Shown here in pieces: positions 4,259 through 32,101 of a stretch of DNA of 36,272 nucleotides. Position 1 is the stretch's first letter. Each line of letters starts with the position of its first letter. The DNA is from an uncultured Caldilineaceae bacterium. Lineage in GTDB: Bacteria > Chloroflexota > Anaerolineae > 4572-78 > J111. The position numbers and the translations under genes are program-made. The stretch covers positions 17,450 through 53,721 of the forward strand of contig CAZWZZ010000001.1 of the NCBI GenBank assembly GCA_964638395.1, in the 5' to 3' direction. The notes under the pieces are model-generated. The model was not told the DNA's origin, did no database searches, and saw only the letters and a program-made list of their open reading frames with translations.

Positions 4259-4269
4259 GGAGGCGTCGA

Positions 4270-4698
4270 ATGTATACGATTATCACCAAAATCAGTTATG
4301 AATATGCCCATCGTCTCATTCATCATCAAGGTAAATGTCGCCATGTGCATGGTCACAGCGGTGAGGCCACTATCGAACTGGCGGCCGAGTCGCTGAATGA
4401 CAACGGTTTTGTGATGGATTTCGGCGAGGTTAAAAGCCCCTTGAAAACGTGGCTCAATGAACATTGGGATCACGCCTACCTGGCCAATGAGCAGGACCCG
4501 TTGTTGCCGACTTTGCAGGCGCAGGGCATGAAAACCTTCATCTTTCCGGCTGAACCATCGGCGGAAGTGATGGCCAAATGTCTATTCGAGCAGGTCTCGA
4601 ATCTGGAGTTGCGGGCCGGAGTCAAGGTGGTGCGGGTGACGGTCCAAGAGACTTGTACCGGCTTGGCCGTGTACGAGCCAACAGGAGGTAGAAGTTAA
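4270..4698 (+). CDS. queD: 6-carboxy-5,6,7,8-tetrahydropterin synthase
   Basis: KCRHVHGHSGE matches the CxxxHGH motif of QueD/PTPS T-fold enzymes, and the ~140-aa size fits. GAGGAGG SD precedes ATG 4270; the track start at 4255 overlaps that SD and is unlikely. Confidence 0.85.
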   Translation: MYTIITKISYEYAHRLIHHQGKCRHVHGHSGEATIELAAESLNDNGFVMDFGEVKSPLKTWLNEHWDHAYLANEQDPLLPTLQAQGMKTFIFPAEPSAEVMAKCLFEQVSNLELRAGVKVVRVTVQETCTGLAVYEPTGGRS

Positions 4699-4701
4699 CC
4701 T

Positions 4702-5382: not shown

Positions 5383-5939
5383 AACCAAAACAATTTGATG
5401 GCGCCCTCATCGAGGAAGGCGTTAGCCTCATCTTAAAGGGCCTGGGCGAAGATTTGAACCGGGAAGGGTTACTCGACACCCCTAAACGGGTGGCCAAGAT
5501 GTATCGAGAAATATTTTGTGATAGTTCATTCAACGGTACGCAATTTTGCAATAGTGAGCAATACAACCAGATCGTTATGGTCCGCGATATTCCCTTTTAT
5601 TCGTTATGTGAACATCACATGTTGCCGTTTTTTGGCACAGCCACAGTTGGCTACATTCCCCAAAAAACGTACCTGGGGCTATCAAAATTAGCCCGGGTGG
5701 TTGATCTTTACAGCCGTCAACTGCAAGTACAGGAGCGCATGACGATGCAGATCGCCGATTGGTTGTGGGAACAGACGAACCCGGCCGGCGTTGGGGTTAT
5801 GGTCAAAGCCAGACATTTATGCATGGAGATGCGCGGCATTCAAAAGATTGGGAGTGAAACAGTCACTACCGCCACGTTGGGGGTATTTCGGACAGACAAG
5901 GAAATCGAAGATAGGTTTATGCGTTTCATAGGCGTATAG
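5373..5939 (+). CDS. folE: GTP cyclohydrolase I
   Basis: LLDTPKRVAKMY, SLCEHHMLPFFG, RQLQVQERMT and ARHLCMEMRG are classical FolE motifs. Overlaps the queE stop by 10 nt. Confidence 0.9.
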   Translation: MHMKPKQFDGALIEEGVSLILKGLGEDLNREGLLDTPKRVAKMYREIFCDSSFNGTQFCNSEQYNQIVMVRDIPFYSLCEHHMLPFFGTATVGYIPQKTYLGLSKLARVVDLYSRQLQVQERMTMQIADWLWEQTNPAGVGVMVKARHLCMEMRGIQKIGSETVTTATLGVFRTDKEIEDRFMRFIGV

Positions 5940-5953
5940 GTGAATGTTTCAAA

Positions 5954-7165
5954 ATGTTTCAACTCGAAATACAACCGCCCGCCGAAATGAATAGCTGGCT
6001 CGACTCTATCAGGGCCGACCTGGGCCACTGTGACCCCCTTGAGACCTTCCGTCGCCGCTGGCAGACGGCCCACGAGCGGTTTGGGCGAGACCCGGTCGGC
6101 GAGTTGGCCTACCGGGATGCCTGGCTCTATTTTCAGGAGAAGGTTCATCCTCTGGTGCGCCGCAAGCTGACGGCGGAGAGCGAAGGGCGTCAGGCCGCCC
6201 GGAAGATCGCGGCCATTTTTGAGCCGGATGCCCCGCCCCAACGGATCAACCGGCAGATGGTGGCTCACATGCGGCAACAGCGTTTAGAGCCAACAAGACC
6301 TGGCAGCTTTTTGAAACCGACCAGGTCGGACCGGCCTGATTTCGACCGGCCTATTTTTATCGTTTCCGCGCCGAGGGCGGGTAGCAGCCTGTTGTTTGAA
6401 ACGCTGGCCCGCTTTGCCGAGGTGTGGACGATTGGGCAGGAAAGCCACGACATCGAGGCCGACCTGCCGGCCCTCCATCCGGCCACCCACGCCTACGCCT
6501 CCAACCGCTTGACCGCCGCCGAGGCCACACCGGCGGTCAGGCAAGCGATGGGGGATTGGTTTGGCCGCCGCTTGCAGGATAGAGAGGGCCGGTTGTATCA
6601 GGCGCTCCCGGCGGAAAAACGGCCGGCGGCGGTTCGCTTTCTGGAAAAGACGCCCAAGAACGCCCTGCGGATCCCCTTCCTGAAAGCCATTTTCCCCGAT
6701 GCTCGCTTCATCTACTTATACCGGGAACCGCGCCAGAACATCAGCAGCATGTTGGAAGGCTGGCGATCCCGCCGCTTTGTGGCCTATCGAGGCCTCCCCG
6801 GCTGGCCCTACAAAGAGTGGAGTTTTCTATTGGTACCGGGCTGGGAGCAGTGGTTCGATAAACCGCTGGTGGAGATTGCGGCCTATCAATGGCAAATTAC
6901 CAACGAGACGATCCGGGCCGATTTGCAACCATTGCCGACGGATTGCTGGCATCGGGTCGATTATGAGGCGTTAATCAACCGCCCCGCCGAAACCATCAAA
7001 CGGATCAGTGATTTTGCAGCGTTTAGCTGGACGGCTGAGATCGCAGAGCGGCTGGCCCGGCCGTTGCCGGTGTCACACATGGCCGTCTCGCCTCCCGCGG
7101 CGGATAAGTGGCGGAAGTATGAGGCGGAGATCAAGTCCGTTCTGCCCGTGATAAACGTCCAATAG
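5954..7165 (+). CDS. Sulfotransferase (P-loop PAPS-binding type) with a ~130-aa N-terminal extension
   Basis: IFIVSAPRAGSSLLFETL (5'-PSB loop, PRxGS[ST]) and RFLEKTPKNALRIPFL are typical of bacterial Sulfotransfer_3-like enzymes. The first ~130 aa have no motif I recognise. Confidence 0.7.
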   Translation: MFQLEIQPPAEMNSWLDSIRADLGHCDPLETFRRRWQTAHERFGRDPVGELAYRDAWLYFQEKVHPLVRRKLTAESEGRQAARKIAAIFEPDAPPQRINRQMVAHMRQQRLEPTRPGSFLKPTRSDRPDFDRPIFIVSAPRAGSSLLFETLARFAEVWTIGQESHDIEADLPALHPATHAYASNRLTAAEATPAVRQAMGDWFGRRLQDREGRLYQALPAEKRPAAVRFLEKTPKNALRIPFLKAIFPDARFIYLYREPRQNISSMLEGWRSRRFVAYRGLPGWPYKEWSFLLVPGWEQWFDKPLVEIAAYQWQITNETIRADLQPLPTDCWHRVDYEALINRPAETIKRISDFAAFSWTAEIAERLARPLPVSHMAVSPPAADKWRKYEAEIKSVLPVINVQ

Positions 7166-7228
7166 GTAGCAAGGAGATCATAAAAATTATGGTAGCCATT
7201 GATAATTTTGCAACAACGGAGGTTTTAT

Positions 7229-10200
7229 ATGGACAAAGAATACGCCATAGCCCCAAAGCTTGATATTGACGGGGGCGCTTATGCTGAATTTTATGTGCTA
7301 CGAAAAAATGCCTCTACTATGACACAAGCCACCATTGAATGGTTTCATAATCATGTAGATGTTTGGTTGAGAGAGGTCACGCATGAAAATGAGAGCCACC
7401 TCCCGGCTATATTAAGCGTTGGCAGTGGGGAAGGCGACATAGATATCGAAATCATTAAGGCTATTCAGCCATACTTGGGTTCAAAAAAATTAAAATATGA
7501 TGCCCTTGAGCCTAATTTGCGCCATTATGAACGTTTCTTAGACAGGATAAATAGGATGCCGCTAGACGCATCCCTCAGTTTAGCCATCTATAATGTATAT
7601 TTTGATCAATTCAGCACCAATCAACAGTATGATGTCGTTTTGCTCATTCATGTCCTTTACTATTTTGATGATCCATATCAAGCCATCCGACAGGCTTTAA
7701 GATATACCAAACCAGGCGGACGAGTCGTTATTATTCACCAATCCTCTACGGGTATTCCTGAAATTCAACGTAAACATATGTATAAGCTAAAGAGCAACGT
7801 GGATGAGTTGTTTACCACCGATGATATCAAAAAATCACTTGATAATGGGGGTGAGCAATATCGTTTTTTTAACATTGATGCCCATTTAGAGGTCACGGAA
7901 TGTCTTAAACGGTCTGAAGTTGGGTTAAAAATAATGTCATTTTGTATGGAATGTGATTTGAGCCAAATTGATAAGTTAAGATTGAATCTTTTGGCTCAAT
8001 CTTTCTCTGACCTTGCGGTGAGTCGGGGCAATGGTAAGTCTTTTATTTATGAACCGCTCGGCGCGTTCATCGTTGATAATCCTAAAACAAAAAGATTGCC
8101 CCAGGATAGGGATTGTGTTGAAGATTATCGCCAACTAGCTCAAAAATTTGAATGGTCTAAAACATTTTTGGACAAAAAAAATTCAAATATCAGAGTCCTG
8201 GATGTGGGTTGTGGAACGGGGCGCTGGTTGCAGGCGTTCCTGATGTATGTGACCCCACAACTGCCCAATTTGGAGATACTGTACGATCTGGTAGACCCTT
8301 CCGAACAGGCTATGTCACAAGCTCTCGTTAAGATAGAGCATCCGCTAAAAATTGGTCACCAATATATAGATACTATTCAGCAAGCCAGGCTAGACCAAAG
8401 TCGTTATGATATTATTTGGTCGATGCATGCTTTCTATGCGATTCCCCGCCCTGACCTCCCTCACGTTTTAGGCAAAATATCTAACCACCTTAACGATCAG
8501 GGTCAGGCGTTTATCGCTCAAGCAACTAAAAAATCGTTTTATGTTCGATTTTACGATAAATTTCTTGAGACATTTCATTGCAACGAAGCTGGTTTTACGT
8601 CAGCAGAGGATATTGTGGCAGCCTTGAACATGCTTGGGCTGGAATATCAGGTGTACGCTATTTCTTATGATGAATGTATAGCTGAAGAGGACTTGATCGC
8701 CCTGGAACATTACATCATGAAAGAATCTGCCAGCAACTCTTTCAGATGGGAAGATGTCTCTGCCCAGGAAGCCAACAGAGAAGTCGGTCTACAAGATGTG
8801 CTGAATGATCCGAGTCTGGGGGCATACCTCCGTTCTTTTATAAAAGAGTCGATGTACTGTTTTACCCAAGAAATATGGCTCATATCGTTTGGGAAGAAAG
8901 AAAATGGGGCTAATCATTTTCATAACAATCATAAACAATCGTTTGATTACCTTGATAAAAATAAACAAAACAGTGTAGTTGACCCCTTGTTACCCGATGA
9001 GACGGAAATGCGTCAACTCGTTGACACAGCAATGAAATTTATCGTGCAGTGTCAGCTAGATACTGCTAAGTTTCCCCTCAATGGCTCTGGGTTTAAGTGG
9101 GTCCACACCGATGACTTCAATCGTGAGTATGAAGATATGCTTACGTTAGCCAAAACAGTTGAAGCGCCTCTACCTGAAGATGGCGAGCCTCATTTTGAAA
9201 AAATCTTGCACGATCTATTCTTTCGACTGACTCCCTACAGCACCAATGATAACAGCGGTGGATATCTGGCCTATGTGCCTGGTGGGGGGCTTTTTCATGC
9301 CGCTCTAGCCGACTTTATCTCCCTATCGCTCAACCGCTATGTGACAATGTTCATGGCCGCGCCGGGCTTGGCGGCCATTGAAGAGCAAGTTATCCGTTGG
9401 CTATGTGATATTGTGGGTTTTTCCAATGAGGCAGGGGGTGTCATTACCTCAGGCGGTTCTACAGCCACTTTTGTGGCTATCCATACCGCTCGGACTGACA
9501 AGCTATCCAACAAAGAATTGTTAAACGGGGTCGCCTATATGAGTGACCAGACTCACCTGTGCGTTGAGCAAGGACTGCATCTTTGTGGGTTTTCCAAACA
9601 GAATATACGTAAAATCCCCGTAGATAGTAACTTCCGTATCCGAACTGATCTCCTGGCACAAACCATTGAGCAAGATAGGGCGGCTGGCCTCCACCCCTTC
9701 TTGTTGGTTGCTAATGCGGGGACGGCCAATACCGGGGCCGTGGATAATTTACTACAAACTGCAAGAATTGCTAGAAACTATAACCTGTGGTTTCACGTTG
9801 ATGCTGCTTATGGTGGATTTTTTCTGTTGACCAAACAAGGGCAGACATTAATGAAGGGCATTGAGCAAGCTGACTCGCTTGTTCTTGATCCCCACAAATC
9901 TTTATTTTTGCCGTATGGCACAGGCGGGTTATTGGTCAACGACAAAACAAAACTGCTAAATGCCTTCACCTTTACCGGAAGTTATTTACCCCCTACTCAA
10001 AAACAGAAAGCAACTGATCCTCTGCTCGATGACATCATGAATCTTTCTCAAGAAGTAAGCAGAGATTTTAGAGGTTTTAGAATATGGTTGCCCTTAAAAA
10101 TGCTTGGCGTGAAGCCCTTCCGTGAGCAACTGGAAGAAAAGTTAAAACTGACTCGCTGGGTGACTGACCAGCTACAACAAATCCCCAATCTTCGGATTGT

Positions 10201-10480
10201 TGCGCCCCCACAACTTTCGGTGGTGACCTTTAAATTAGAGCCTACCGACTTTGATGTTTCTGACGAAGAACTGGATCAGCTTAATAAAAATTTCTTAGAT
10301 GCCATTAACCGGCGAGGGAATATTTTTCTTTCACCGTTTAAGTCCAAAGATAACGTCATCGGAGAATTTGCGCTACGCATGGCTATACTCTCCCATCGAA
10401 CAAAGCAGGAGCATCTCCGGCAAGGCGTCAGCGACATTCAATCAGCCGTAGAGGAAACATTATCGGGTTCGCAATGTTGA
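7229..10480 (+). CDS. Tri-domain protein: HNMT-like N-methyltransferase + class-I SAM methyltransferase + group-II PLP-dependent amino-acid decarboxylase
   Basis: Domain 1: ILSVGSGEGDIDIEII...LEPN...YDVVLLIHVLYYFDD (histamine-N-methyltransferase-like pattern). Domain 2: IRVLDVGCGTGRWL (motif I, nt ~8190-8230). Domain 3: HVDAAYGGF and LDPHKSLFLPYGTGG (PLP-Lys, nt ~9888) of DOPA/Tyr/His/DABA decarboxylases. ATG 7229 has an ACGGAGG SD; the track start at 7199 is TTG. Confidence 0.75.
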   Translation: MDKEYAIAPKLDIDGGAYAEFYVLRKNASTMTQATIEWFHNHVDVWLREVTHENESHLPAILSVGSGEGDIDIEIIKAIQPYLGSKKLKYDALEPNLRHYERFLDRINRMPLDASLSLAIYNVYFDQFSTNQQYDVVLLIHVLYYFDDPYQAIRQALRYTKPGGRVVIIHQSSTGIPEIQRKHMYKLKSNVDELFTTDDIKKSLDNGGEQYRFFNIDAHLEVTECLKRSEVGLKIMSFCMECDLSQIDKLRLNLLAQSFSDLAVSRGNGKSFIYEPLGAFIVDNPKTKRLPQDRDCVEDYRQLAQKFEWSKTFLDKKNSNIRVLDVGCGTGRWLQAFLMYVTPQLPNLEILYDLVDPSEQAMSQALVKIEHPLKIGHQYIDTIQQARLDQSRYDIIWSMHAFYAIPRPDLPHVLGKISNHLNDQGQAFIAQATKKSFYVRFYDKFLETFHCNEAGFTSAEDIVAALNMLGLEYQVYAISYDECIAEEDLIALEHYIMKESASNSFRWEDVSAQEANREVGLQDVLNDPSLGAYLRSFIKESMYCFTQEIWLISFGKKENGANHFHNNHKQSFDYLDKNKQNSVVDPLLPDETEMRQLVDTAMKFIVQCQLDTAKFPLNGSGFKWVHTDDFNREYEDMLTLAKTVEAPLPEDGEPHFEKILHDLFFRLTPYSTNDNSGGYLAYVPGGGLFHAALADFISLSLNRYVTMFMAAPGLAAIEEQVIRWLCDIVGFSNEAGGVITSGGSTATFVAIHTARTDKLSNKELLNGVAYMSDQTHLCVEQGLHLCGFSKQNIRKIPVDSNFRIRTDLLAQTIEQDRAAGLHPFLLVANAGTANTGAVDNLLQTARIARNYNLWFHVDAAYGGFFLLTKQGQTLMKGIEQADSLVLDPHKSLFLPYGTGGLLVNDKTKLLNAFTFTGSYLPPTQKQKATDPLLDDIMNLSQEVSRDFRGFRIWLPLKMLGVKPFREQLEEKLKLTRWVTDQLQQIPNLRIVAPPQLSVVTFKLEPTDFDVSDEELDQLNKNFLDAINRRGNIFLSPFKSKDNVIGEFALRMAILSHRTKQEHLRQGVSDIQSAVEETLSGSQC

Positions 10481-10504
10481 CTTTAATCGTTCGGGAATAA
10501 ATTT

Positions 10505-11871
10505 ATGGCTTTTACAGGCATTTTAGCGACCGGCGGCATCGTCTATGTTGGCCTAAAAACCTACCGGCGTCTGTCTAAAAAACAGAATTTATTATATCAG
10601 TCGTTAACAGAGGAAGAGGCTCAAACATCTCTGGCTACTTCTACCAGGCATACAATGGCCTCAGCAGAAATGAGTCAGGATCATGTAGACCCGCTTGCCC
10701 AACGGCGGGCAACCAACCATTACCTGGCGGCTTCTTCGGTTGGCCTGGGGTTGGCTCTGGTCGGGGCTGTTGGGTATCCTCTGGTCAGTCTGCTCAGCGT
10801 GCCGGTTTCGCTCTATGCGTATGGTGATATTTTGCGAGCCGGCTACCACGCTCTGTTCAAAGAACGACGTCTACGAGCCGCCGTGCTTGATTCTATCATC
10901 ACCTTTGGGTTAGTTATATCGGGCTACTACATCGCCACGGCTCTATCAAACTGCGTCTATTTCTTGGGAGTCCGGTTGTTGTTGCAAACTGAGGATGCCT
11001 CTCGCCAAAGCCTGACAAATTTATTTGGTGAACAACCACGCCTCGTCTGGCGACTCGTCGATGGCGCGGAAGTGGCCACCCCGTTTGAGGCGATTCAACG
11101 GGGCGATGTGGTCGTGGTTAATGCCGGGGAGATGATTCCGGTCGATGGCCGGATTGTGCAGGGTATCGCCTCGGTTGACCAGCAGAAATTGACGGGCGAA
11201 TCCCAACCCGTTGACAAAACGCCGGGAGACCACGTTTTGGCAGCGACGCTCGTTTTGGCCGGTCAACTCTATATCGAGGTGGAAAAGGCCGGGACGGAAA
11301 CCATTGCTGCTCAAATCGGCGAGATTTTAAGCCGCACCGCAGATTTCAAAGCAACCATCGAGGCCCGGAGCCAACAGATTGCTGACAAATCTGTTTTACC
11401 AACCCTTGGGGCCGGGCTGTTGGCCTTGTTGACCTTAAATCCCATTAAGGCCATAGCCACCATCTCCGCTAATTATTCGGAGATACTCCGCATCGCCGGG
11501 CCGTTGGGGATGTTGAATTTTCTGCACCTGGCGACCGAGAACGGTATCTTGGTTAAGGATGGTCGCTCCCTGGAACTACTCACCGAGATCGATACGGTGG
11601 TTTTTGACAAAACCGGGACATTGACGTTGGAGCAACCGTCGGTGGGCCAAATTCATTGCTGTGCTGACTTATCGGCCGATGAGGTGCTGGTCTATGCCGC
11701 CACCGCCGAATACCGGCAAACGCATCCCATCGCCAGGGCAATTCTACAGGCGGCGCCGGTGTGGCCAACGCCATGCTGCCTCGGCTAAACCGCCACCGGC
11801 TGCTGGCCGCGCCGGATAATTCTCAGCAAGTTTCACTTGTACCAAATAATGCGGAGAAAATCAAAATTTGA
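10505..11871 (+). pseudogene. P1B-like ATPase paralogue 2, internally deleted and frameshifted
   Basis: Collinear with paralogue 4 through TGES, DKTGTLT and AEYRQTHPIARAILQAA (nt ~11750). It then jumps out of frame to the last ~38 codons (AGVANAMLPRLNRHRLLAAPDNSQQVSLVPNNAEKIKI*, ending 11871). The hinge GDGINDA, ISGD and the C-terminal TMs are missing. The in-frame reading stops at 11788. Confidence 0.85.
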
Positions 11872-12042
11872 CCTCAACTCACACCAAAGAAATCGCCGTG
11901 ATTGGATTAGGCTGTCGATTTCCGGGTGGTGTGAAAGGGAGTTGCTAACTGTCGGAAAATTTCCGCTGTTGTGTACTACTGCTTATATATCAGGAAGAAA
12001 ACAAAATGAATGATGCAGTCCGCTTAGAAGATAATAAAATAA
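11794..12042 (+). repeat. 249-bp direct repeat, copy A (identical to 20201..20449)
   Basis: Base-by-base comparison of the two stretches shows no mismatch. The ~35 bp upstream are similar but not identical. Identity ends abruptly at 12042/20449. Confidence 0.95.
11868..11948 (+). pseudogene. Remnant of a type-I polyketide ketosynthase 5' end (copy A)
   Basis: TTG-initiated 26 codons (M)TSTHTKEIAVIGLGCRFPGGVKGSC*. EIAVIGLGCRFPGG matches the conserved N-terminal KS motif IAI[IV]G[ML][GS]CR[FL]PG[GA]. The TTG overlaps the ATPase stop (TTGA). Confidence 0.55.
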
Positions 12043-12830
12043 CCAGGCAACATTGGTGGACACGTGACGATTTACAATATAAAGATGGTCATCTCAACTT
12101 TGCCGGACAGGATATGGTGACGGTTGTCAACTCAACTGAAACGCCGGTCTATTTTTATAGTTCTGCCCGTGTTCAGCAGAATATCCAGCGCAAGTTAATG
12201 GCGATGGTCAAAGGGGATTTGCTTGAATGGGGGCCAGCTAATATTCAGTGTCGGGGGTTACAAGATGGCACGTTGAATCTGATATTACGGCATCGGTTTG
12301 AAATGGAGCTGGCCCAATATCAAACCAGCCCCGATTTACGGGTTAGCTTTCGGGAACAGATTGCCGAGCTACGGCAGGAGAACAACTCGTTGCGAGGTAA
12401 GTTGGCCCACGTAACGGGGAAGATGGCGGAGTACCAGCTGGCCAATGCGTTTCGCAGCCGGAAACGCTTTAAGCCGGTTGATTTTTTTGAATTTGCTTCT
12501 CCCTCTGAACCTGTCGAAACAAAACTGAATTTCCTTGATGTGCAGACACGGATTATCATCCAGCGGGCTGATGGTAAGCGGATGGAGTTAGATATCGTGG
12601 CCGAGTCGAGTGAGGGGCCGGTACTGCTGGTGGAAGTTCGCAAACGGCAGGTGAAATCGAATGGGAATGATGTGGCCGATTTTCAAGAAAAGGTGGCGGT
12701 TTATCAAACCTTGCATCCGGGTCGCATCGTGTTGGCGGGGTTTCTCTCCCTTGGTGGGTTTACTGAAGATGCCCGGCAGTTGTGTGAGCAGTCGGGTATT
12801 GGCTGGAGTGAAGAGTTGCGATATTTTTAA
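12006..12830 (+). CDS. Chimeric ORF: decarboxylase-like N-terminal ~65 aa joined to a PD-(D/E)xK nuclease-like (DUF234-like) C-terminal module
   Basis: ITRQHWWTRDDLQYKDGHLNFAGQDMVTVVNSTETPVYFYSSARVQQNIQRKL parallels ITLWWERSDLCYQENRLTFAGQDVAAIAQQSGIPTFLYNAHRVAHNLRRL of the next gene, but the PLP-binding barrel never follows. The C-terminus (ELDIVAESSEGPVLLVEVRKRQ...FLSLGGFTEDA) resembles the nuclease-fold tails of archaeal-type ATPases. Possibly non-functional. Confidence 0.45.
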   Translation: MNDAVRLEDNKITRQHWWTRDDLQYKDGHLNFAGQDMVTVVNSTETPVYFYSSARVQQNIQRKLMAMVKGDLLEWGPANIQCRGLQDGTLNLILRHRFEMELAQYQTSPDLRVSFREQIAELRQENNSLRGKLAHVTGKMAEYQLANAFRSRKRFKPVDFFEFASPSEPVETKLNFLDVQTRIIIQRADGKRMELDIVAESSEGPVLLVEVRKRQVKSNGNDVADFQEKVAVYQTLHPGRIVLAGFLSLGGFTEDARQLCEQSGIGWSEELRYF

Positions 12831-12867
12831 GTAGCTGAAACTACCGTTTTTGTTTAAGGAGATCAAT

Positions 12868-14592
12868 GTGATTGATTCACAAAGTTTTTATCCCATGCAG
12901 TACCATACTGCTTTGACTGATTACCCTCAAAAAGATGATTTTGAGTTGGCGAACATTGATGACAAATGTGGTTCAGGTATTGTTACTCGGCGGAGTTTCA
13001 AACAAGGGCAACTTGTAGCCCGAATCAGCGGTGACATTGTTTCTCAGGTAAAGTTACATACACTCCAGATTAGTCCGGCACAACATCTCTTTGACCCTTA
13101 TTTTAGTGGTTATTTACTTCATTCTTGTCGACCAAATGCCATTCTTGATATGCAGGCTTTAGAAATTTGGGCTTTACGAGATATTCAAGCTGGTGAATTG
13201 TTAACCATAGATTACACAATGACGGAAGATATACTATCGAGACAATTTTCCTGTTTGTGTGAATCGCCTCAATGTCGACTATGGATTACTGGTCGCAAAG
13301 AGATGATCAATGAAGCTGGTCGGCAATATCTTCAGATTAAGGATGAACCATTTAAGCCTCATCGTTTGCCCAACATAACGTTATGGTGGGAACGGTCTGA
13401 TTTATGTTATCAAGAAAACAGGCTGACCTTTGCTGGTCAGGATGTCGCCGCAATCGCCCAACAGAGTGGGATACCTACTTTTCTGTACAATGCTCACCGA
13501 GTAGCCCACAACTTGCGACGACTGACCGTGGCATTAGGGCAGGCAAACATTGTTCACAAAATATTTTATGCTATCAAAGCCAATCGGTTCATGCCGTTGT
13601 TGACCTATATTAAATCAACCCAATTGTGTGGTGTGGATGTTTGTTCGCCCCAGGAAATACAGTTGGCCTTGGCTTGTGGTTTTGAGGAGAAGGAGATTTC
13701 CTACACCGGTTGCTCCGTTTCTGACCAAGATATAGATATAATCTTGCGCTACCCAATGTTACTGATTAATTGTGATTCTTTAAGTATGATACGTCGAATT
13801 GGTGAACGGACTCCCGGACGGTCTATCGGTCTACGGATTAATCCGGCAATGGGCGTTGGCTATGGTGACAATGCATTGTTACAGTATAGTGGCTCTCAAA
13901 CCAGTAAATTTGGCATTTATCGAGAGCAGTTTGCAGAAGCATTGGCTTTGTGTCATCAATATGGTCTGCTTGTTGAGCGGATCCATTTTCATAGCGGTTG
14001 TGGATATCTCAATAATCAATTGGCGACTTGGGATAAAATCTTACACAATTGTCGCTGGTTTTTGGATCAAGTACCTAGTTTGAAAGCGATTAATATTGGC
14101 GGTGGTTTAGGTGTGCCCCATGTAAACAGTGACTCGCCACTCGACCTCTCAGCTTGGGTCGAGATTATTCAACGCAATTTTTCCTCCTACAAGGTTGAAA
14201 TTCAGGTCGAACCGGGCGATTACATCGTCAAAGATGCTGGAATGTTGGTTTTACAAATTAATATGGTGGAAAAGAAGCGAGACAAATGGTTTGTAGGGGT
14301 CAATGGTGGTTTTAATTTAGCCGTAGAACCGTTCTTTTATAACTTGCCTTGTGAACCAGCGGTCTGTGTTCTGGCAGATGACGCCGCTAAATCGCTTGCT
14401 CCGCAGAGTCTCAAGCCCGTAACAATTGCCGGGAATATCAACGAAGCATTGGATATTTGGTATGACAATTTCCCGCTCCCGCCTGTGAAAGAAGGCGATT
14501 ATCTGGCCTTTATTAACGCCGGAGGCTACGCTACTGCCATGAGTTCCAACCATTGTTTGCGAGGAACTTTCACAGAACAGTTGTTAGTTTAG
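12868..14592 (+). CDS. SET-domain methyltransferase fused to an Orn/DAP/Arg-family (fold-type III) PLP decarboxylase
   Basis: SET: CGSGIVTRRSFKQGQLVARISG, LLHSCRPNA (NHSCxPN), ELLTIDY, post-SET CLCESPQC. Decarboxylase: FYAIKANRF (PLP-Lys), HFHSGCGY, GGGLGVP, EPGDYIVKDAG, NAGGYATAMSSNHCLRG. GTG 12868 lies 6 nt after AAGGAG; ATG 12895 is an alternative start. Confidence 0.8.
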   Translation: MIDSQSFYPMQYHTALTDYPQKDDFELANIDDKCGSGIVTRRSFKQGQLVARISGDIVSQVKLHTLQISPAQHLFDPYFSGYLLHSCRPNAILDMQALEIWALRDIQAGELLTIDYTMTEDILSRQFSCLCESPQCRLWITGRKEMINEAGRQYLQIKDEPFKPHRLPNITLWWERSDLCYQENRLTFAGQDVAAIAQQSGIPTFLYNAHRVAHNLRRLTVALGQANIVHKIFYAIKANRFMPLLTYIKSTQLCGVDVCSPQEIQLALACGFEEKEISYTGCSVSDQDIDIILRYPMLLINCDSLSMIRRIGERTPGRSIGLRINPAMGVGYGDNALLQYSGSQTSKFGIYREQFAEALALCHQYGLLVERIHFHSGCGYLNNQLATWDKILHNCRWFLDQVPSLKAINIGGGLGVPHVNSDSPLDLSAWVEIIQRNFSSYKVEIQVEPGDYIVKDAGMLVLQINMVEKKRDKWFVGVNGGFNLAVEPFFYNLPCEPAVCVLADDAAKSLAPQSLKPVTIAGNINEALDIWYDNFPLPPVKEGDYLAFINAGGYATAMSSNHCLRGTFTEQLLV

Positions 14593-14638: not shown

Positions 14639-15023
14639 ATGTTAATAACTCTTTTAGCGGCTGGCGGTGCGGTTTATGTGGGCCTCAAAACCTACCACAC
14701 CCAGTCGAAAAAGCAGCCTTTATATCAGTCATTAGCAACAGACGATATCTTCTCTTGTTTCTTTTGACACGCAAATAAAGCCTGTCGTAGCGATGACAAA
14801 TGAGGATATGGCCTCACTTAAACAACGGCAAACTGTCAACCACTATTTAGCGGCCTCTTCGGCTGGTTTAGGAGTGGCGATTGTCGGTGCTATGGGCCAT
14901 CCTCTGATGAGTTTGCTGAGTGTACCGATTTCGGTATATGCTTATAGTGATATTTTACGAGCCGGTTATCAGGCGTTGTTTAAGGAACGGCGGTTGCGGG
15001 CTGCGGTTGTTGATTCGATGTAA
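14639..15023 (+). pseudogene. P1B-like ATPase paralogue 3: 5' fragment only, with frameshift
   Basis: 14639-14767 encodes MLITLLAAGGAVYVGLKTYHTQSKKQPLYQSL...*, matching the paralogue 2 N-terminus MAFTGILATGGIVYVGLKTYRRLSKKQNLLYQSL. In another frame, 14793-15023 encodes QTVNHYLAASSAGLGVAIVGAMGHPLMSLLSVPISVYAYSDILRAGYQALFKERRLRAAVVDSM*, which matches paralogue 2 and then stops. No actuator, P or N domain follows. Confidence 0.85.
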
Positions 15024-15257: not shown

Positions 15258-16526
15258 ATGCATGTAGAATCGACGGAACTGACGGTTCCAAAAGAAGAGT
15301 TGAACATTTCCACCCTCCATCATCGATTTATGGATAGTGATTATGTCCCTATTCGTTTTCTCTCAAGTACCCTGAATGAGTCAACGTGCTCTATTGAAGT
15401 AGATAGTATTTATCCAGAAAATTACACAAAATTAGATATAGACTCGATTTTCTCATTAAAAAAGAGGGGTGGTGAAAATACAGATGCTTTTACTGCCGTC
15501 CTCATTATTCCTACAGGGATTGATGCCCAAATAGGTGGACATTGCGGTGATGCTTCTGTCCTTGCTCGGTATATTGCCTCGGCGTGCGATACATTAATTA
15601 CACATCCAAATGTCGTTAACGCTGCAGACTTCAATGAATTAACAGACAATACGCTCTATGTTGAAGGTAGCACGATTACCCGCTTGCTTATGGGACAAAT
15701 CGGCTTAAAAAAAGTACGCGCTAATAGAATGTGCGTTATCATGGATACAAGTCCAGATCGCTATATTAATACAGAAATTGTGAATGCTGTCTCGACGGCT
15801 CGAATGACATTGGGGCTAGATTGTGATGTTTTAGAAATCCCGGATTTGGCTCGCTATACGACGCAGTATTCCAGTTCTGGAAGAGTCATTGGTCAGATTA
15901 CGAATCTGGAACATCTCTTTCACGCAATAGAGAAGGTACAAGACGATTATGACACATTTGCGCTAACATCGTTTATCAATGTCCCTGAAGGTCTAGAGAT
16001 TACCTATTTCAAAGATGACACTATTATTAATCCTTGGGGGGGCATCGAAGCCATGCTTACCCATGCCTGCGTTGAACATTTTAAGAAACCATTTGCACAT
16101 TCTCCGATGGGAACAGTAAAAGAAGTATATGACAAAATTAAAGAGGTAGGCATTATTGATCCCAGAAAAGCATCTGAAACCGCGTCCATCACCTATTTGA
16201 ATTGTATCTTAAAAGGGCTGTATCGAACTCCGAAAATTGTTTCGTATGAGGATGGACTCAATGTGTCTGATGTATCCTGTGTCATCATACCGGATCAGTG
16301 TGTCGGGTTACCGGTATTAGCCTGTATTGAGCAAGATATTCCGATTATTGCCGTGAAAAACACAAACATCATGCGAAATGATGTCACTCAACTTCCGTGT
16401 CCTCCCAGAAAGTTTTTTAGAGCGAATAACTATCTTGAGGCTGTTGGCATCATGAATTGTCTTAAAAGCGGTATCGCTATTGATACCATTCAACGCCCCA
16501 TACCTGCGACAACATATTTTACCTAG
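15258..16526 (+). CDS. Conserved hypothetical protein, DUF3326-like
   Basis: IIPTGIDAQIGGHCGDASVLARYIASACDTLITHPNVVNAA resembles the PTGIGAxIGGxAGDA...HPNV signature I associate with DUF3326 proteins (family name from memory). AAGGAG SD upstream. Confidence 0.4.
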   Translation: MHVESTELTVPKEELNISTLHHRFMDSDYVPIRFLSSTLNESTCSIEVDSIYPENYTKLDIDSIFSLKKRGGENTDAFTAVLIIPTGIDAQIGGHCGDASVLARYIASACDTLITHPNVVNAADFNELTDNTLYVEGSTITRLLMGQIGLKKVRANRMCVIMDTSPDRYINTEIVNAVSTARMTLGLDCDVLEIPDLARYTTQYSSSGRVIGQITNLEHLFHAIEKVQDDYDTFALTSFINVPEGLEITYFKDDTIINPWGGIEAMLTHACVEHFKKPFAHSPMGTVKEVYDKIKEVGIIDPRKASETASITYLNCILKGLYRTPKIVSYEDGLNVSDVSCVIIPDQCVGLPVLACIEQDIPIIAVKNTNIMRNDVTQLPCPPRKFFRANNYLEAVGIMNCLKSGIAIDTIQRPIPATTYFT

Positions 16527-16594
16527 TGATGTACAAGCTTTATAAGAGCTATTCATTAATCCATTAATTCCGTTCACCACCAAAGATAAAACAG

Positions 16595-16631
16595 GGAGTC
16601 GGGAATTAGAGGCAATCTGACTCCCGACTCC
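16595..16631 (+). other. Hairpin (10-bp stem GGAGTCGGGA / TCCCGACTCC, 17-nt loop) between two genes
   Basis: Perfect inverted repeat read directly from the sequence, with no downstream T-tract. Possibly an attenuator, an RNA-processing site or a weak terminator. Confidence 0.25.
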
Positions 16632-16665
16632 GATTTACAGAGAAGCAAGCTACTGGAATTGAGAT

Positions 16666-18156
16666 ATGGATCGAAAAATGAACAAACAAGACCAGATACC
16701 AATCTTAGAGAATTTGGTTCAATGTAGTAATTACGACGGCCTACAGTTTTATTTTCCCGGTCATAAGCAAGGTCGTTTTTTTTCAGACAAGCTAAAACAA
16801 ATCTTGGGTCAGCACACATTAGCCATCGATCTCCCTTCAATTGATGGAGAAACCGACAATACGTTTCATTCTGAGGGATGTATCAAGCTGGCCCAAGAAC
16901 TAACTGCCGAGTTGTACGGAGCGACTCACACTCGTTTTTTGGTTCATGGGGCCACAAGTGGAGTTATTACAGCCATTATGACGGCTGTTTCTCCCAACCA
17001 AGCCATCTTATTACCTCGTAATATTCATCGTTCCGTTGTATCAGGGCTAGTTCTTTCTGGATCCCGCCCAGTATACCTAATGCCCCAATCCCACCCTATG
17101 TCTATGTATAGTGCCTTATCTGTTTCGGTTGACCAAGTGAGGCAAGCATTTGAACAACATTCGGACCTGGGGGCAATGCTACTTACCCGACCAACCTACT
17201 ATGGTATTGCTAATAACAACATCAAAGAAATTGCTCAAATCTGCCACGACCATAATTGCCCTTTAATTGTTGACGAATCTCACGGGAGCCACCTTCAATT
17301 CTTACCAGAGGGCTATCCGACATCAGCACTGAAACTATTAGCTGATGTTGTCATTCAAAGCCCTCATAAAACACTCGGCTCCCTGAGTGGCACTGCCCAA
17401 CTTCATATTGGACACAATGCTTTAATTGATATAGACCGCTTGCAACTCATGCTGAATACCTTACAGAGTACTAGCCCCAACTATATTCTCCTGGCCTCCC
17501 TTGATGCAACTCGACACATGATGTGGCAACAAGGTCGCCACTTGTTTGCTAAAACAGTTAAACAGGTGGAAGCATTGCGAGACCAAATTGAGGCTATACA
17601 TGGGATGACATGTGCTCTCCTTGACCCAAGATTAGCCGAACAAGGGTATCAGGCTGATCCCTTGCGGTTGGTGGTCAACTTTAGTGAGATGAATCTGTCA
17701 GGGTTTACGGCCGCAGAAATTTTAGAAAAAGAATATGGGATCCGTTGGGAAATGCGTGATCACCATAACATTATCCTTGTACTTAGCCCTCAAGATGGTG
17801 TAGCAATGTATAAGCAATTGGTAGCGGCTTTACAGGCCTTGGCTAACAAATATTCTTCAACAGTCGAAACAAGTGCTCCTAAATATGATGTAATTGAAAC
17901 TATCCCCTTACCTATATTAGAACTTCTACCTAGAGAAGCCGTTTTTAGCCATAAAGCTGTGGTTCCCTTTAACCAAGCCCACGCTAAAATTTGTGGAGAG
18001 ATAGTGACTACTTACCCGCCAGGGATTCCAATTCTCTGTCCGGGCGAAGTAATATCAAAAGAGATTATTGAGTTTTGTCTATTTCTTAAAGCCCAACAAG
18101 CTGATATTTACGCTACGGATTCTTCACTAGAATCGTTTGTTGTTGTTGACCAATGA
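16666..18156 (+). CDS. Orn/Lys/Arg decarboxylase family (fold-type I PLP enzyme, SpeA/YaaO-like)
   Basis: FYFPGHKQG at the N-terminus and VIQSPHKTLGSLSGTA (S-x-HK PLP-lysine) are typical of the OKR_DC_1 major domain. The ~490-aa size fits. Confidence 0.75.
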   Translation: MDRKMNKQDQIPILENLVQCSNYDGLQFYFPGHKQGRFFSDKLKQILGQHTLAIDLPSIDGETDNTFHSEGCIKLAQELTAELYGATHTRFLVHGATSGVITAIMTAVSPNQAILLPRNIHRSVVSGLVLSGSRPVYLMPQSHPMSMYSALSVSVDQVRQAFEQHSDLGAMLLTRPTYYGIANNNIKEIAQICHDHNCPLIVDESHGSHLQFLPEGYPTSALKLLADVVIQSPHKTLGSLSGTAQLHIGHNALIDIDRLQLMLNTLQSTSPNYILLASLDATRHMMWQQGRHLFAKTVKQVEALRDQIEAIHGMTCALLDPRLAEQGYQADPLRLVVNFSEMNLSGFTAAEILEKEYGIRWEMRDHHNIILVLSPQDGVAMYKQLVAALQALANKYSSTVETSAPKYDVIETIPLPILELLPREAVFSHKAVVPFNQAHAKICGEIVTTYPPGIPILCPGEVISKEIIEFCLFLKAQQADIYATDSSLESFVVVDQ

Positions 18157-18169
18157 TGTAATAGGACAC

Positions 18170-20278
18170 ATGCCAGAAATGATCATTACAAAAATTCTTT
18201 TGATTGGTGGAGCCATTTACCTAAGCACAAAAACACACCTCTTTCACAAAAAAAATAATTTGGCGACTGTTTTAACGTCTCCTGATAAACCACAAACTCC
18301 CGTAAAACATACTGACACATTGACCACTTTGCTACCATCTCGATTTAGGGCATTATTAGAAAGTGATGAACAGACAGAAGAGGAGCAAATAGTCAACCAT
18401 TATCTTGTTGTTTCAGTTGCGGCAACAGGATTAGCGGCCCTGGGTGGTCTATTTTATGCTCCATTGTCGGTAGCTAGTTTGCCGTTGAGTATCTATACCT
18501 GTGTACCAATTTACCAAATTGCCTACCAAGCCTTGGTTAAAGAGGGGCGGCTCCGAGCAGAATTTGTCGATGCTATCGCGCTTACAGGAATATTTTTTAC
18601 GAGATATTACTTCGCTTTAGCTTTAGGCTCAGTCCTTTATTTTACGGGAAGTAAATTTATGTTGAGAACCGAGGATAACTCCCGTAAAAATCTGACCAAC
18701 CTATTTGGTGAGCAACCCCGTATGGTCTGGCGGGTCGTGGATGGGGTAGAGGTGGAAACGCCGTTTGAAGCCCTCAGACCGGGAGATGTTATTGTGGTCA
18801 ATGCCGGGGAGATGGTGCCGGTTGATGGTCGCATTGTGGAGGGGCATGGCTCACTCGATCAACATAAGCTGACCGGTGAATCCCAACCGGCGGAAAAGGG
18901 GCCGGCAGACCCAGTGTTTGCGGCTACCGTTCTGCTTGCCGGTCGGCTTTATATCCAAATCGAAAAGGCTGGCTCGGAAACGGTGGCGGCCCAAATTGGC
19001 GAGATATTGAATCGCACCACCGATTTCAAAAGCCTGATTGAAGCCCGTAGCCAGAAGTTGGCCGATCAGTTGGTTCTCCCGACTCTCGGTGTCGGTACTT
19101 TGGCCCTGTTAAGCCGGGGTCTGGTTGGTGGGGTGGCAGCCATCTCAGCCAACTTTTCCGACGTGTTCCGCGTCGTCGGCCCCTTGGGTATGCTGAACTT
19201 CCTGCAACTGGCAACCAAAGAGGGCATCTTGATCAAAGATGGCCGCTCGTTGGAACTGCTCAACCAAGTTGATACGGTGGTGTTCGACAAAACCGGCACC
19301 TTGACCCTAGAACAACTCCAAGTCAGCCAGATTCATGCTTGCGGCACCTTTTCCGAAGATGAACTGCTAACCTACGCTGCCACCGCCGAACATCGCCAAA
19401 GCCACCCCATCGCCAAAGCGATTCAACAGGCGGCCATCGAGCGCAACCTCACCTTGCCCCCACTCGATGAGGCCAGTTACGAAGTGGGTTACGGTCTGCG
19501 AGTGCGGATTGGGGCGCACCAGGTACGGGTCGGCAGTGCCAGATTTATGAATCTGGAGCAGATTACCTTACCGGAATCGATTCACCTGGCTCAAACCGAA
19601 GCCGCAGAAAACGGCCATTCGTTGGTCTACCTGGCCGTGGATGACGACTTAGCCGGGGCCATTGAACTCCAGCCGACCATCCGCCCGGAAGCCAAGCAGG
19701 TGATTGCCGACCTCAAGAAACGGGGCCTATCTCTCTATATCATCTCCGGCGACCACGAACAGCCGACCCGCACCCTGGCCGCCGCGTTGAGTATCGATCA
19801 CTATTTTGCCGAGGTTTTGCCGGAGGATAAGGCCAATTTAGTAGCGCAGTTGCAGCAAGCGGGGCGTTGTGTCTGTTTTGTGGGGGATGGCATCAACGAC
19901 TCGATAGCTCTGAAAAAAGCCAATGTTTCCATCTCGATTCGAGGCGCTTCGACCATCGCTACCGACACGGCCCAAATCGTTCTGATGAACCAGAGCTTGA
20001 GCCAACTCGACACGCTGTTTCAGATAGCCCACGACCTCGATACAAATATGAGGAGCAATCTGGTCATCACCTTTGGGCCGGGTCTGTTCTGTGTGGGCGG
20101 CGTTTTCTTTTTACATTTTGGCATCCTGAGCGCCGTCGCGCTTTACAACGTGTCTCTGGTCGCCGGCGTGACCAACGCCATGCTGCCCTGGCTACAGCGT
20201 CACCGGCTGCTGGCCGCGCCGGATAATTCTCAGCAAGTTTCACTTGTACCAAATAATGCGGAGAAAATCAAAATTTGA
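18170..20278 (+). CDS. Divergent P1B-like P-type ATPase, paralogue 4 (intact, 702 aa from ATG 18170)
   Basis: LTGESQPAEK, DKTGTLT, AEHRQSHPIA, ISGDHEQ, VLPEDK, GDGINDSIAL. The CPx position reads AISANFSDVFRVVGP. ATG 18170 (MPEMIITKILLIGGAIYLSTKTH) lies just after the upstream stop; the track start at 18137 is TTG inside the previous gene. Confidence 0.85.
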   Translation: MPEMIITKILLIGGAIYLSTKTHLFHKKNNLATVLTSPDKPQTPVKHTDTLTTLLPSRFRALLESDEQTEEEQIVNHYLVVSVAATGLAALGGLFYAPLSVASLPLSIYTCVPIYQIAYQALVKEGRLRAEFVDAIALTGIFFTRYYFALALGSVLYFTGSKFMLRTEDNSRKNLTNLFGEQPRMVWRVVDGVEVETPFEALRPGDVIVVNAGEMVPVDGRIVEGHGSLDQHKLTGESQPAEKGPADPVFAATVLLAGRLYIQIEKAGSETVAAQIGEILNRTTDFKSLIEARSQKLADQLVLPTLGVGTLALLSRGLVGGVAAISANFSDVFRVVGPLGMLNFLQLATKEGILIKDGRSLELLNQVDTVVFDKTGTLTLEQLQVSQIHACGTFSEDELLTYAATAEHRQSHPIAKAIQQAAIERNLTLPPLDEASYEVGYGLRVRIGAHQVRVGSARFMNLEQITLPESIHLAQTEAAENGHSLVYLAVDDDLAGAIELQPTIRPEAKQVIADLKKRGLSLYIISGDHEQPTRTLAAALSIDHYFAEVLPEDKANLVAQLQQAGRCVCFVGDGINDSIALKKANVSISIRGASTIATDTAQIVLMNQSLSQLDTLFQIAHDLDTNMRSNLVITFGPGLFCVGGVFFLHFGILSAVALYNVSLVAGVTNAMLPWLQRHRLLAAPDNSQQVSLVPNNAEKIKI

Positions 20279-20449
20279 CCTCAACTCACACCAAAGAAAT
20301 CGCCGTGATTGGATTAGGCTGTCGATTTCCGGGTGGTGTGAAAGGGAGTTGCTAACTGTCGGAAAATTTCCGCTGTTGTGTACTACTGCTTATATATCAG
20401 GAAGAAAACAAAATGAATGATGCAGTCCGCTTAGAAGATAATAAAATAA
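20201..20449 (+). repeat. 249-bp direct repeat, copy B (identical to 11794..12042)
   Basis: Covers the last 26 codons of ATPase paralogue 4, the KS remnant, an intergenic stretch and 12 codons of MNDAVRLEDNKI. Confidence 0.95.
20275..20355 (+). pseudogene. Remnant of a type-I polyketide ketosynthase 5' end (copy B)
   Basis: Same 81 nt as 11868..11948. TTG overlaps the ATPase TGA stop. (M)TSTHTKEIAVIGLGCRFPGGVKGSC*. Confidence 0.55.
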
Positions 20450-31975: not shown

Positions 31976-32101
31976 CAGGCTGTGGCTCCAATGTCAAGCG
32001 AACATCTCAGGTTTCTGAATCACGCCGGTGAGAATGGACGTTTTTTGGACGTTTATAAGATACGTTGTGAGTATCATCAGATAGTTGATTCGAGGTTTAC
32101 C

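Follow-up and report, generated by a model that had tools for sequence, protein, structure and literature searches.

The window analyzed here is a stretch of 36,272 nucleotides from an uncultured Caldilineaceae bacterium (contig CAZWZZ010000001.1 of assembly GCA_964638395.1), and the gene under study occupies positions 12868-14592 of its plus strand. An uninterrupted open reading frame (ORF) runs there from 12850 to 14592 on the same strand, within which the gene starts at GTG 12868 and stops at TAG 14592, giving a product of 574 aa. A Shine-Dalgarno sequence, AAGGAG (12856-12861, plus strand), lies 6 nt upstream of GTG 12868. Translation from this codon yields the N-terminus MIDSQSFYP, which matches those of the homologues, and the 574-aa protein has an exact sequence match in public collections (P0121). 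The ribosome-binding site, the homologue N-termini, and the exact database match together rule out TTG 12850 as the start; they also show that an earlier interpretation of this DNA made from its letters (the sequence-only reading) had placed the gene exactly right. Residue numbers throughout are counted from TTG 12850, a scheme of 580 aa, so that the position in the real protein is the number given minus 6. In the protein, a SET domain is connected by a short linker to a complete fold-III pyridoxal 5′-phosphate (PLP) decarboxylase. On domain and homology evidence, we predict that it is a bifunctional methionine S-methyltransferase and S-methylmethionine (SMM) decarboxylase, that is, a fusion of BurB with BurI.

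Pfam recognizes the first half as SET (residues 41-122; 29.6 bits, where the cut-off is 22.4) and the second as Orn_Arg_deC_N (95.1 bits) and Orn_DAP_Arg_deC (48.6 bits), both above their gathering scores. The linker (residues 162-178; 13333-13383, plus strand) differs in length between lineages, and model confidence is low across residues 164-174. An AlphaFold model of the fusion contains two well-folded domains joined by this low-confidence linker (mean predicted local distance difference test score 78, predicted template modeling score 0.63), and its inter-domain geometry is unreliable. All of the motifs quoted in the sequence-only reading are present, namely HSCRPN, ELLTIDY, and CLCESPQC in the SET half and YAIKAN (with Lys243), HFHSGCGY, GGGLGVP, and EPGDY in the decarboxylase. 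That reading's central observation, a SET domain and a fold-III decarboxylase in one polypeptide, is borne out by the intact ORF, the Pfam domains, and independent assemblies. Indeed, two sources yielded the identical protein, one NCBI assembly and a Logan assembly built independently from another read set, and a 95%-identical fusion protein occurs in two more read sets. In all of these assemblies, the fusion is followed by the same genes (a 76-aa ORF, a DUF3326 gene, and an OKR-type decarboxylase gene), and the longest Logan contig (L088) runs on into an ATPase gene. More broadly, fused homologues with 41-95% identity occur in many independent assemblies. An assembly chimera, a risk that had been raised at the outset, is ruled out by these independent assemblies and the many fused homologues. 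The full-length fusion is kept in all six window-type loci (83-100% identity in the decarboxylase half), and neither reads failing to span 13330-13400 nor frameshifts or stop codons disabling most close relatives of the gene were seen. The gene had been described as AT-rich relative to its flanks, and its GC content is indeed 0.43, as against 0.50 for the window; the low-GC block (GC 0.40-0.45) spans ∼12-18.5 kb, however, so it is wider than the fusion gene and not specific to it. A promoter and terminator scan gave nothing above shuffled background.

When the SET half is compared with all Protein Data Bank (PDB) sequences, the best match is the BurB chain 9l4t (E 3e-47, 163.7 bits, no gaps). 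Residues 13-161 (12886-13332, plus strand) form a BurB-type SET domain that aligns gaplessly to BurB residues 15-163, the window residue number being the BurB number minus 2. By comparison, protein-lysine methyltransferases (ASH1L, MLL, and others) match at 7e-7 or weaker (about 1e-6). The SET half is also 50% identical (E 1e-58) to the BurB of the Eleftheria terrae bur cluster. BurB of Burkholderia thailandensis S-methylates free L-methionine to SMM, as established by genetic and in vitro evidence (PMC7496086). Structures of BurB with bound methionine, SMM, and S-adenosylmethionine (SAM) have been reported, and 4-methylthio-2-hydroxybutyrate (MTHB) and methylmercaptopropionate (MMPA) are not used (PMC12542666). 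BurB contacts the alpha-amino and alpha-carboxyl groups of methionine, its Y124A mutant is inactive, and the protein is a tetramer in solution (PMC12542666).

Three residues of the SAM- and SMM-binding site, all encoded on the plus strand, are invariant in 15 fusion proteins: His70 (13057-13059), the counterpart of BurB His72, which binds SAM's amino and carboxyl groups; His91 (13120-13122), the counterpart of His93, which binds adenine; and Tyr122 (13213-13215), the counterpart of Tyr124, the aromatic residue between SMM and SAM. R131, equivalent to the ribose-binding BurB R133, is R or K across the same 15 proteins. The post-SET cysteines C135-x-C137-x4-C142 (13252-13275, plus strand) and Cys93 (13126-13128, plus strand), which joins their cluster, are invariant in the fusion proteins and in BurB. 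The catalytic tyrosine and SAM-pocket residues, whose conservation the sequence-only reading had made a touchstone, are thus kept in the homologues. The positions that do vary among the fusion proteins are those that contact methionine through the main chain in BurB, together with R42, A44, and H138. By these alignments the SET half is a member of the BurB family and not of the histone lysine methyltransferase type, and its substrate is most likely a small free molecule and not a protein. Because of this family membership, the methyl group is predicted to go to the sulfur of methionine and not to a nitrogen of a diamino acid or polyamine. The earlier proposal that the SET domain methylates an amino group of such a compound therefore stands as regards a free small molecule and fails as regards the group methylated; a SET methyltransferase that acts on a small molecule, BurB, has already been described (PMC7496086, PMC12542666).

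The second half (residues 179-580; 13384-14589, plus strand) was identified as a BurI-type fold-III PLP decarboxylase from Pfam, structural matching, and comparison with BurI. LysA enzymes (Escherichia coli 1KNW/1KO0 and Thermotoga maritima 2YXX) match it best in both structure and sequence, at 22-27% identity, and Foldseek with the whole model returned LysA-type decarboxylases only. Against the lysA equivalog TIGR01048, the score is 202.5 bits, below the cut-off of 297.9. We compared the residues in question across a clade of 72 SET-linked decarboxylases. The PLP machinery (K243, H379/H381, G417-419, E454, and Y560) is invariant there, and Lys243 (13576-13578, plus strand), the Schiff-base lysine corresponding to E. 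coli LysA Lys54, is found in 72/72 members.

The distal substrate pocket differs from that of LysA. In the diaminopimelate (DAP) decarboxylase of Thermotoga, R249 and R285 are salt-bridged to the distal carboxylate of meso-DAP, and E315 of the CES motif binds its distal ammonium (PMC8277567). Alignment to LysA places Asp457 (14218-14220, plus strand) at the arginine of the EPGR motif (E. coli R271, T. maritima R249), Glu493 (14326-14328, plus strand) at the second DAP-carboxylate arginine (E. coli R307, T. maritima R285), and Asn531-Glu532-Ala533 (14440-14448, plus strand) in place of the LysA Cys-Glu-Ser (E. coli C342-E-S344). Across the clade, the first of these positions is D in 56 members, T in 9, E in 4, and G, A, or N in 1 each, and never Arg; the second is Glu in 71/72 members and Gly in the remaining one; and Asn531 and Glu532, the latter equivalent to T. 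maritima E315, are each found in 72/72. The EPGDY motif, previously cited as a decarboxylase hallmark, is therefore the site at which D replaces the DAP-binding Arg of EPGR. On this alignment, the charge of the distal pocket is switched from +,+,− to −,−,−. DAP is very unlikely as a substrate because both carboxylate-binding arginines are replaced, and an acidic pocket would fit a cationic side chain that lacks a carboxylate, such as the dimethylsulfonium group of SMM.

The closest comparison is provided by Eleftheria terrae, whose plasmid carries a bur/mal-type cluster. This cluster starts with the polyketide synthase (PKS) gene burA, the SET gene burB, TauD, the aminotransferase gene burD, and the aldehyde dehydrogenase gene burE, and it continues through a megasynthase and further genes to a “diaminopimelate decarboxylase” in the burI position (L170:38430-39641). 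The decarboxylase half of the fusion is 51% identical to that enzyme over 407 aa (E 6e-149), the motifs EPGD, LAVEP, and AGNINEALD are common to both, and the residues D457, E493, and E532 are likewise present in the Eleftheria BurI orthologue. The genome scan did not find burI within ±8 kb in its Burkholderia and Pandoraea loci, because the gene lies ∼18 kb from burB. A burI knockout accumulates SMM (PMC7496086), and both BurI and the SMM decarboxylase SMMDC have been described as similar to DAP decarboxylase (PMC11464771). Taken together, the alignments identify the decarboxylase half as a BurI-type enzyme, a predicted SMM decarboxylase that is LysA-like in fold only. Its earlier assignment to the DAP/ornithine type does not survive the score below the lysA cut-off, the loss of the DAP arginines, and the 51% identity to BurI.

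We therefore consider it likely, with good though not full confidence, that the fusion is a bifunctional enzyme that converts methionine and SAM to SMM and SMM to 3-dimethylsulfoniopropylamine (DMSP-amine). Judging from its family, the SET domain would methylate free L-methionine on sulfur with SAM as the donor, giving SMM. The PLP domain would then remove the alpha-carboxyl group of SMM to yield DMSP-amine and CO2, as BurI orthology and the active-site changes suggest. The two halves most likely act consecutively, and joining them would probably keep SMM from being lost to other reactions. Formation of dimethylsulfoniopropionate (DMSP) from the product of the fusion would need unlinked enzymes; alternatively, DMSP-amine itself may be the product or a precursor. 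Dimerization is obligatory for fold-III decarboxylases, in which the active site borrows a CES-motif residue of the other subunit (PMC8277567). Since these enzymes are obligate dimers and BurB is a tetramer, we would expect the fusion to be an oligomer.

The relatives of the gene bear on this assignment. A search with a SET-domain profile gave 316 confirmed loci in species-representative genomes, and a search with an alignment of the fusion gave 451 loci in metagenomes. Among 154 decarboxylase-carrying loci, SET and decarboxylase are adjacent separate genes in 120, fused in 29, and neither in 5. In the genome set, the separate genes mostly stand in the order SET then decarboxylase, with 42-140 nt between the aligned parts, and are sometimes reversed. 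Their recurrent neighbors are a class-III aminotransferase, an aldehyde dehydrogenase, SAM synthetase, a σ54 activator, and homocysteine-synthesis genes; often, SAM synthetase precedes the pair and the aminotransferase and aldehyde dehydrogenase follow it. Measured against the Eleftheria bur-cluster enzymes, the aminotransferase is 54% identical to BurD and the aldehyde dehydrogenase 52% identical to BurE. By gene content, these separate-gene operons are predicted to cover the full route from methionine through SMM, DMSP-amine, and DMSP-aldehyde to DMSP. When the decarboxylase halves are placed in a distance tree, the all-fused clades number seven, and every one of them has a separate-gene relative closer to it than any other fused clade is; this suggests that fusion of an adjacent burB followed by burI arose about seven times. 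Such repeated fusion of adjacent genes argues that the two activities work together.

The fused and separate forms differ in their surroundings. In the fused form, the linkage of burB to a burI-type gene is itself maximal. We counted neighbors within 9 kb at loci with at least 3 kb on both sides, a set of 13 fused and 67 separate loci. A BurD-like aminotransferase occurs at 0/13 fused and 23/67 separate loci, a BurE-like aldehyde dehydrogenase at 0/13 and 19/67, and MetK at 0/13 and 14/67. For the aminotransferase, the difference has a Fisher p of 0.015, to be read with the fact that the loci are not phylogenetically independent. The 36-kb window likewise contains no burD- or burE-type genes. 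There is precedent for unlinked completing enzymes, in that burD and burE knockouts still make the product (PMC7496086).

Fused forms tend to adjoin transporters rather than burD and burE. In alphaproteobacterial carriers, the fused gene is preceded by an ∼820-aa membrane protein with weak MFS/TLC-like matches; in Novosphingobium mangrovi (L001:3723-7832) and a metagenome-assembled genome of Magnetospirillaceae (L003:7106-9972), an ∼130-aa family-less protein also stands before the fusion, and the L003 membrane protein carries a cyclic-nucleotide-binding (cNMP-binding) domain. An MFS transporter adjoins the fusion in L085. A third fused lineage (P0091-like) has variable, housekeeping-like neighbors and no consistent partner. 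The only named close relative of the window fusion lies on a 3.4-kb contig (L004) binned as Chloroflexaceae. A further variation is seen in seven loci of the Magnetospirillum/Phaeospirillum type (L020, L026, L042, L046, L047, L053, and L060), where the SET gene is followed by a different and far more divergent fold-III decarboxylase of 485 aa (for example, L042:8207-9664) that in L060 is ∼21% identical to the window decarboxylase half. A second decarboxylase lineage may have been recruited there beside burB.

Reviews up to mid-2026 report burB only in Burkholderia thailandensis and describe a narrow range of taxa (PMC9135737, PMC13360808). In our searches, burB-type loci (L005-L083 and L091-L169; for example, L039:4413-12700 and L024:8001-12572) occur in the Desulfobacterota (Desulfosarcina, Desulfobacter, Desulfopila, Desulfobulbus, Desulfatibacillum, and the cable bacterium Electrothrix), in Thiorhodococcus, in Magnetospirillum and other Rhodospirillales, in Myxococcota, and in Pandoraea. 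Sulfate reducers of the Desulfobacterota, purple sulfur bacteria, and magnetotactic Rhodospirillales are among the carriers. Many of the loci have a compact operon of MetK, burB, burI, burD, and burE. As judged by homology, burB-type genes, usually accompanied by burI, burD, and burE, are thus present in hundreds of species, against current statements in the DMSP field. DMSP is a marine sulfur compound, and surveys of its producers use marker genes. The operon carriers are unrecognized candidate DMSP producers in anoxic habitats, and, if their burB-type genes are active, anoxic sediments may produce more DMSP than current estimates allow. The automatic names “protein-lysine N-methyltransferase” and “diaminopimelate decarboxylase” hide genes of the burB and burI types.

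In the clade to which the window gene belongs, the fusion lies among genes for P1B-like P-type ATPases (the window, L002, L084, and L090). In L002 and L090, the order is the fusion, an intact ATPase, and a 265-aa class-I methyltransferase. In the window, the position after the fusion is taken by a 76-aa ORF (14793-15023, plus strand), which is the N-terminal remnant of a P-type ATPase without the CPx motif, of the same family as the ATPase directly downstream of the fusion in L002 and L090. The window holds six members or fragments of this ATPase family (613-2808, 10505-11755, 14793-15023, 18137-20278, 20743-22914, and 31982-32866), which are 32-56% identical to one another; relatives hold others (L002:7732-9783 and 11902-14064; L084:4823-6979 and 9803-11845; L090:4842-7046 and 12047-14206). 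The window ATPases have no CPx, SPC, or CPH metal motif in the helix before DKTGT, where NYS- or GYN-type sequences stand instead, and no N-terminal CxxC domain. CPx is likewise absent from 116/120 of the closest ATPase homologues (from Beggiatoa, Thioploca, Entotheonella, Chloroflexi TSY, Caldilineaceae, and others), and all are annotated “heavy metal translocating.” A general pairing of CPx-less ATPases with amine-producing enzymes was considered and is not supported, the Beggiatoa and Chloroflexi TSY contexts being without such genes.

Beyond the 76-aa remnant, 15258-18156 contains a DUF3326 protein (422 aa), a 496-aa Orn/Lys/Arg decarboxylase of the OKR_DC_1 type, and then an intact ATPase. 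According to a 2026 preprint, production of a cadaverine-derived polyamine requires PavB, a DUF3326 protein, along with a decarboxylase-domain protein. By analogy, the DUF3326/OKR pair is probably a polyamine-type module. It stands beside the fusion only in the closest relatives (L086-L088) and is absent in L002, L084, and L090.

On the other side of the fusion, a 274-aa ORF (12006-12830, plus strand) begins with ∼58 aa that are the remnant of the N-terminus of another fold-III decarboxylase (33% identity to that of the fusion); the remaining ∼200 aa have only a weak match to UPF0102 (nuclease-like). This ORF is conserved in the identical assemblies. It was rejected as a conserved partner, since the ORFs that precede the fusion in L090 do not resemble it. 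Nearby lies the first copy of a direct repeat of 289 nt (11754-12042, plus strand), 98% identical to 20161-20449 and made up of an ATPase 3′ end plus 171 nt of downstream DNA. The two copies bracket an 8.4-kb low-GC segment that holds the fusion gene. The copy at 11754 joins codon ∼433 of the truncated ATPase (10505-11755) to the last 38 codons of another; the joined end is 92% identical there, compared with 56% in the body. This copy marks an internal deletion of the ATPase gene at 10505-11755, and the site is a scar of recombination or deletion. Misjoining in a short-read assembly is conceivable here as well; the domain junction of the fusion is >1.2 kb from the repeat. Insertion sequence (IS) elements flank the fusion in L084. 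PADLOC found no defense-system match for the fusion, the ATPase, or neighbors without a known family, and a defense-island reading is therefore unsupported.

Farther upstream, 2885-10480 reads in one direction and opens with a complete 7-deazaguanine gene set: a glutamine amidotransferase fused to QueC (2885-4258), QueD/PTPS (4255-4698), a QueE-like radical SAM enzyme (4702-5382), and GTP cyclohydrolase I (5373-5939). The set is followed by a gene for a sulfotransferase (5954-7165) and then by one for a 1093-aa protein (7199-10480). In this protein, two class-I methyltransferase domains are joined to a group-II PLP decarboxylase, which makes it the island's second methyltransferase-decarboxylase fusion, unrelated to the first; the truncated ATPase follows it. 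Elsewhere in the window are two unusual multidomain proteins of the periplasmic-binding kind, one of 1213 aa with three solute-binding-protein domains (25042-28683) and one of 756 aa in which HetL/Alr5209-type pentapeptide repeats occur together with a PstS-family phosphate-binding domain (33931-36201), as well as an MscS gene whose best named homologues are 47% identical (Ardenticatenaceae and Chloroflexi TSY). The best named homologues of the MscS gene and of the ATPase, together with the binning of L004, point weakly to a host in the Chloroflexota; a cyanobacterial origin, considered at first, was set aside.

These surroundings admit a more speculative proposal, to which we assign a low probability, that the fusion enzyme and the CPx-less ATPase that follows it in relatives make up a “make and pump” module rather than an entry to the DMSP pathway. 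DMSP-amine would then be the end product, either transported by the ATPase or used as an aminopropyl donor, and the window would be an island of paralogous ATPases, each with its own organic-cation cassette. DMSP-amine is an organic cation of the sulfonium type, and its structure is analogous to that of decarboxylated SAM, the aminopropyl donor. Candidate cassettes would be the SET-decarboxylase, the DUF3326 protein with the OKR decarboxylase, and the two methyltransferase domains fused to a PLP decarboxylase. If true, this proposal would give P1B-type pumps a new class of substrate.

Several points weigh against the assignment of the fusion as a methionine S-methyltransferase and SMM decarboxylase. 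In the SET half, three BurB positions that touch SAM are changed, R42 to Cys, A44 to Ser, and H138 to Leu. In the other half, the clade-wide change from Cys to Asn is unexplained, and LysA acts on a D-center, whereas SMM is an L-amino acid. The role of BurI as an SMM decarboxylase itself rests on knockout and metabolite data plus homology to the reconstituted Streptomyces SMMDC (PMC7496086). Since fused loci have no linked burD or burE (0/13), the physiological end product may not be DMSP. Finally, the probable partner ATPase is a 76-aa remnant in a recombination-scarred region, so the module may be decaying, with the fusion gene intact.

Four other explanations were considered. The same domains would give the same end product if the steps ran in reverse, with the decarboxylase making 3-methylthiopropylamine (MTPA) from L-methionine and the SET domain then S-methylating MTPA to DMSP-amine. 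In that case, the poorly defined “decarboxylation” route would exist here in fused form; its enzymes have been identified for the first step only, and the BurB assays covered methionine, MTHB, and MMPA but not MTPA (PMC12542666). However, BurB binds both the alpha-amino and the alpha-carboxyl group of methionine, and MTPA has no carboxyl group. Moreover, the SMM that accumulates in a burI knockout places methylation before decarboxylation in the homologous system (PMC7496086), and the three acidic residues of the distal pocket favor a cationic sulfonium over the neutral thioether of methionine. We regard the reversed order as improbable. The model favored in the sequence-only reading, in which the SET domain N-methylates a diamino acid or polyamine made or used by the decarboxylase (meso-DAP/lysine, ornithine/putrescine, or carboxyspermidine), is favored by the fact that lysine epsilon-amines are the classic SET substrates. 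The acidic pocket (D457, E493, and E532) could in principle bind the ammonium of ornithine or lysine, the polyamine-type module of DUF3326 and OKR decarboxylase lies just downstream, and a saccharopine-dehydrogenase-like gene adjoins the fusion in three loci of another fused lineage. Against these points, the SET half is ∼40 orders of magnitude in E-value closer to BurB than to any lysine methyltransferase, loss of both DAP-carboxylate arginines makes DAP very unlikely, and the conserved operon partners are MetK, BurD-like, and BurE-like genes, which belong to methionine, SAM, and DMSP metabolism, rather than lysine or polyamine genes. Nor does the DUF3326/OKR pair lie next to the fusion in L002, L084, and L090. 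Methylation of an amine is, in our estimate, quite improbable.

The remaining two explanations we rate lower still. It is hardly probable that the SET domain is a protein-lysine methyltransferase that modifies the attached decarboxylase or another protein and that the decarboxylase is an ordinary LysA paralogue. The Pfam SET match and the NCBI names of the homologues (“SET domain-containing protein-lysine N-methyltransferase” and “diaminopimelate decarboxylase”) would suggest as much, but those names are automatic, the characterized family member BurB uses free methionine (PMC7496086; PMC12542666), and the decarboxylase, which is without the DAP-binding arginines, does not reach the lysA equivalog cut-off. 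Equally slight is the chance that the gene is a decaying or nonfunctional relic in a recombination-scarred island, or an assembly chimera. The flanking genes are broken (the truncated ATPase, the 76-aa ATPase remnant, and the 58-aa decarboxylase remnant), the 289-nt, 98%-identical direct repeat surrounds the segment, and IS elements surround the fusion in L084. The gene itself, however, has a full-length ORF, a strong ribosome-binding site, and intact catalytic and cofactor residues throughout; the same protein appears in independent assemblies, and six window-type loci keep the full-length fusion.

Thus, a two-step enzyme leading from methionine to DMSP-amine is the account we prefer. The component enzymes are already known; what appears to be new is the BurB–BurI fusion, the taxa that carry it, the absence of burD and burE, and the unusual ATPase neighbors. 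In the searchable literature, we found no description of a single-polypeptide BurB–BurI enzyme. Such a fusion would offer a compact tool that takes methionine to DMSP-amine in two steps. Since the last two pathway genes are missing beside the fused form, one may also ask whether DMSP-amine has its own function.

It is useful to set the fusion beside the systems it resembles. Its N-terminal 150 aa align gaplessly with BurB (PDB 9l4t/9l4v), with the pair of histidines, the tyrosine, the ribose-binding arginine, and the cysteine cluster kept. BurB, however, is a free-standing 172-aa protein encoded in a nonribosomal peptide synthetase (NRPS)-PKS virulence-factor cluster, whereas here the domain is joined to the next enzyme and there is no NRPS or PKS. 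The C-terminal 400 aa are 51% identical, over the full length, to the enzyme in the burI position of Eleftheria. BurI is the product of a separate gene, ∼18 kb from burB in bur clusters and mostly next to it elsewhere, and in the fusion it forms the C-terminal domain. With LysA, the fusion shares fold and domain order, the PLP lysine, the HxH motif, the GGG phosphate loop, the EPG glutamate, and the C-terminal tyrosine; it differs in that the distal-carboxylate arginines have become Asp and Glu and Cys-Glu-Ser has become Asn-Glu-Ala.

Among enzymes of DMSP synthesis, two comparisons are informative. MmtN and the plant MMT have the same predicted first reaction, methionine to SMM, and the downstream logic is also the same, with an SMM decarboxylase, an aminotransferase or oxidase, and an aldehyde dehydrogenase. 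Both, however, are class-I Rossmann methyltransferases with no sequence similarity to SET or BurB. The bifunctional DMSP synthase DsyGD of Gynuella and some filamentous cyanobacteria (PMC11306096) is the closer parallel in design, being a fusion of a methyltransferase with a decarboxylase that carries out two consecutive steps of a DMSP pathway. Its sequence is unrelated, and it belongs to the transamination pathway, in which MTHB is converted through 4-dimethylsulfonio-2-hydroxybutyrate (DMSHB) to DMSP, so that DMSP is made directly (PMC11306096). The BurB–BurI fusion, in contrast, would stop at DMSP-amine, two steps before DMSP.

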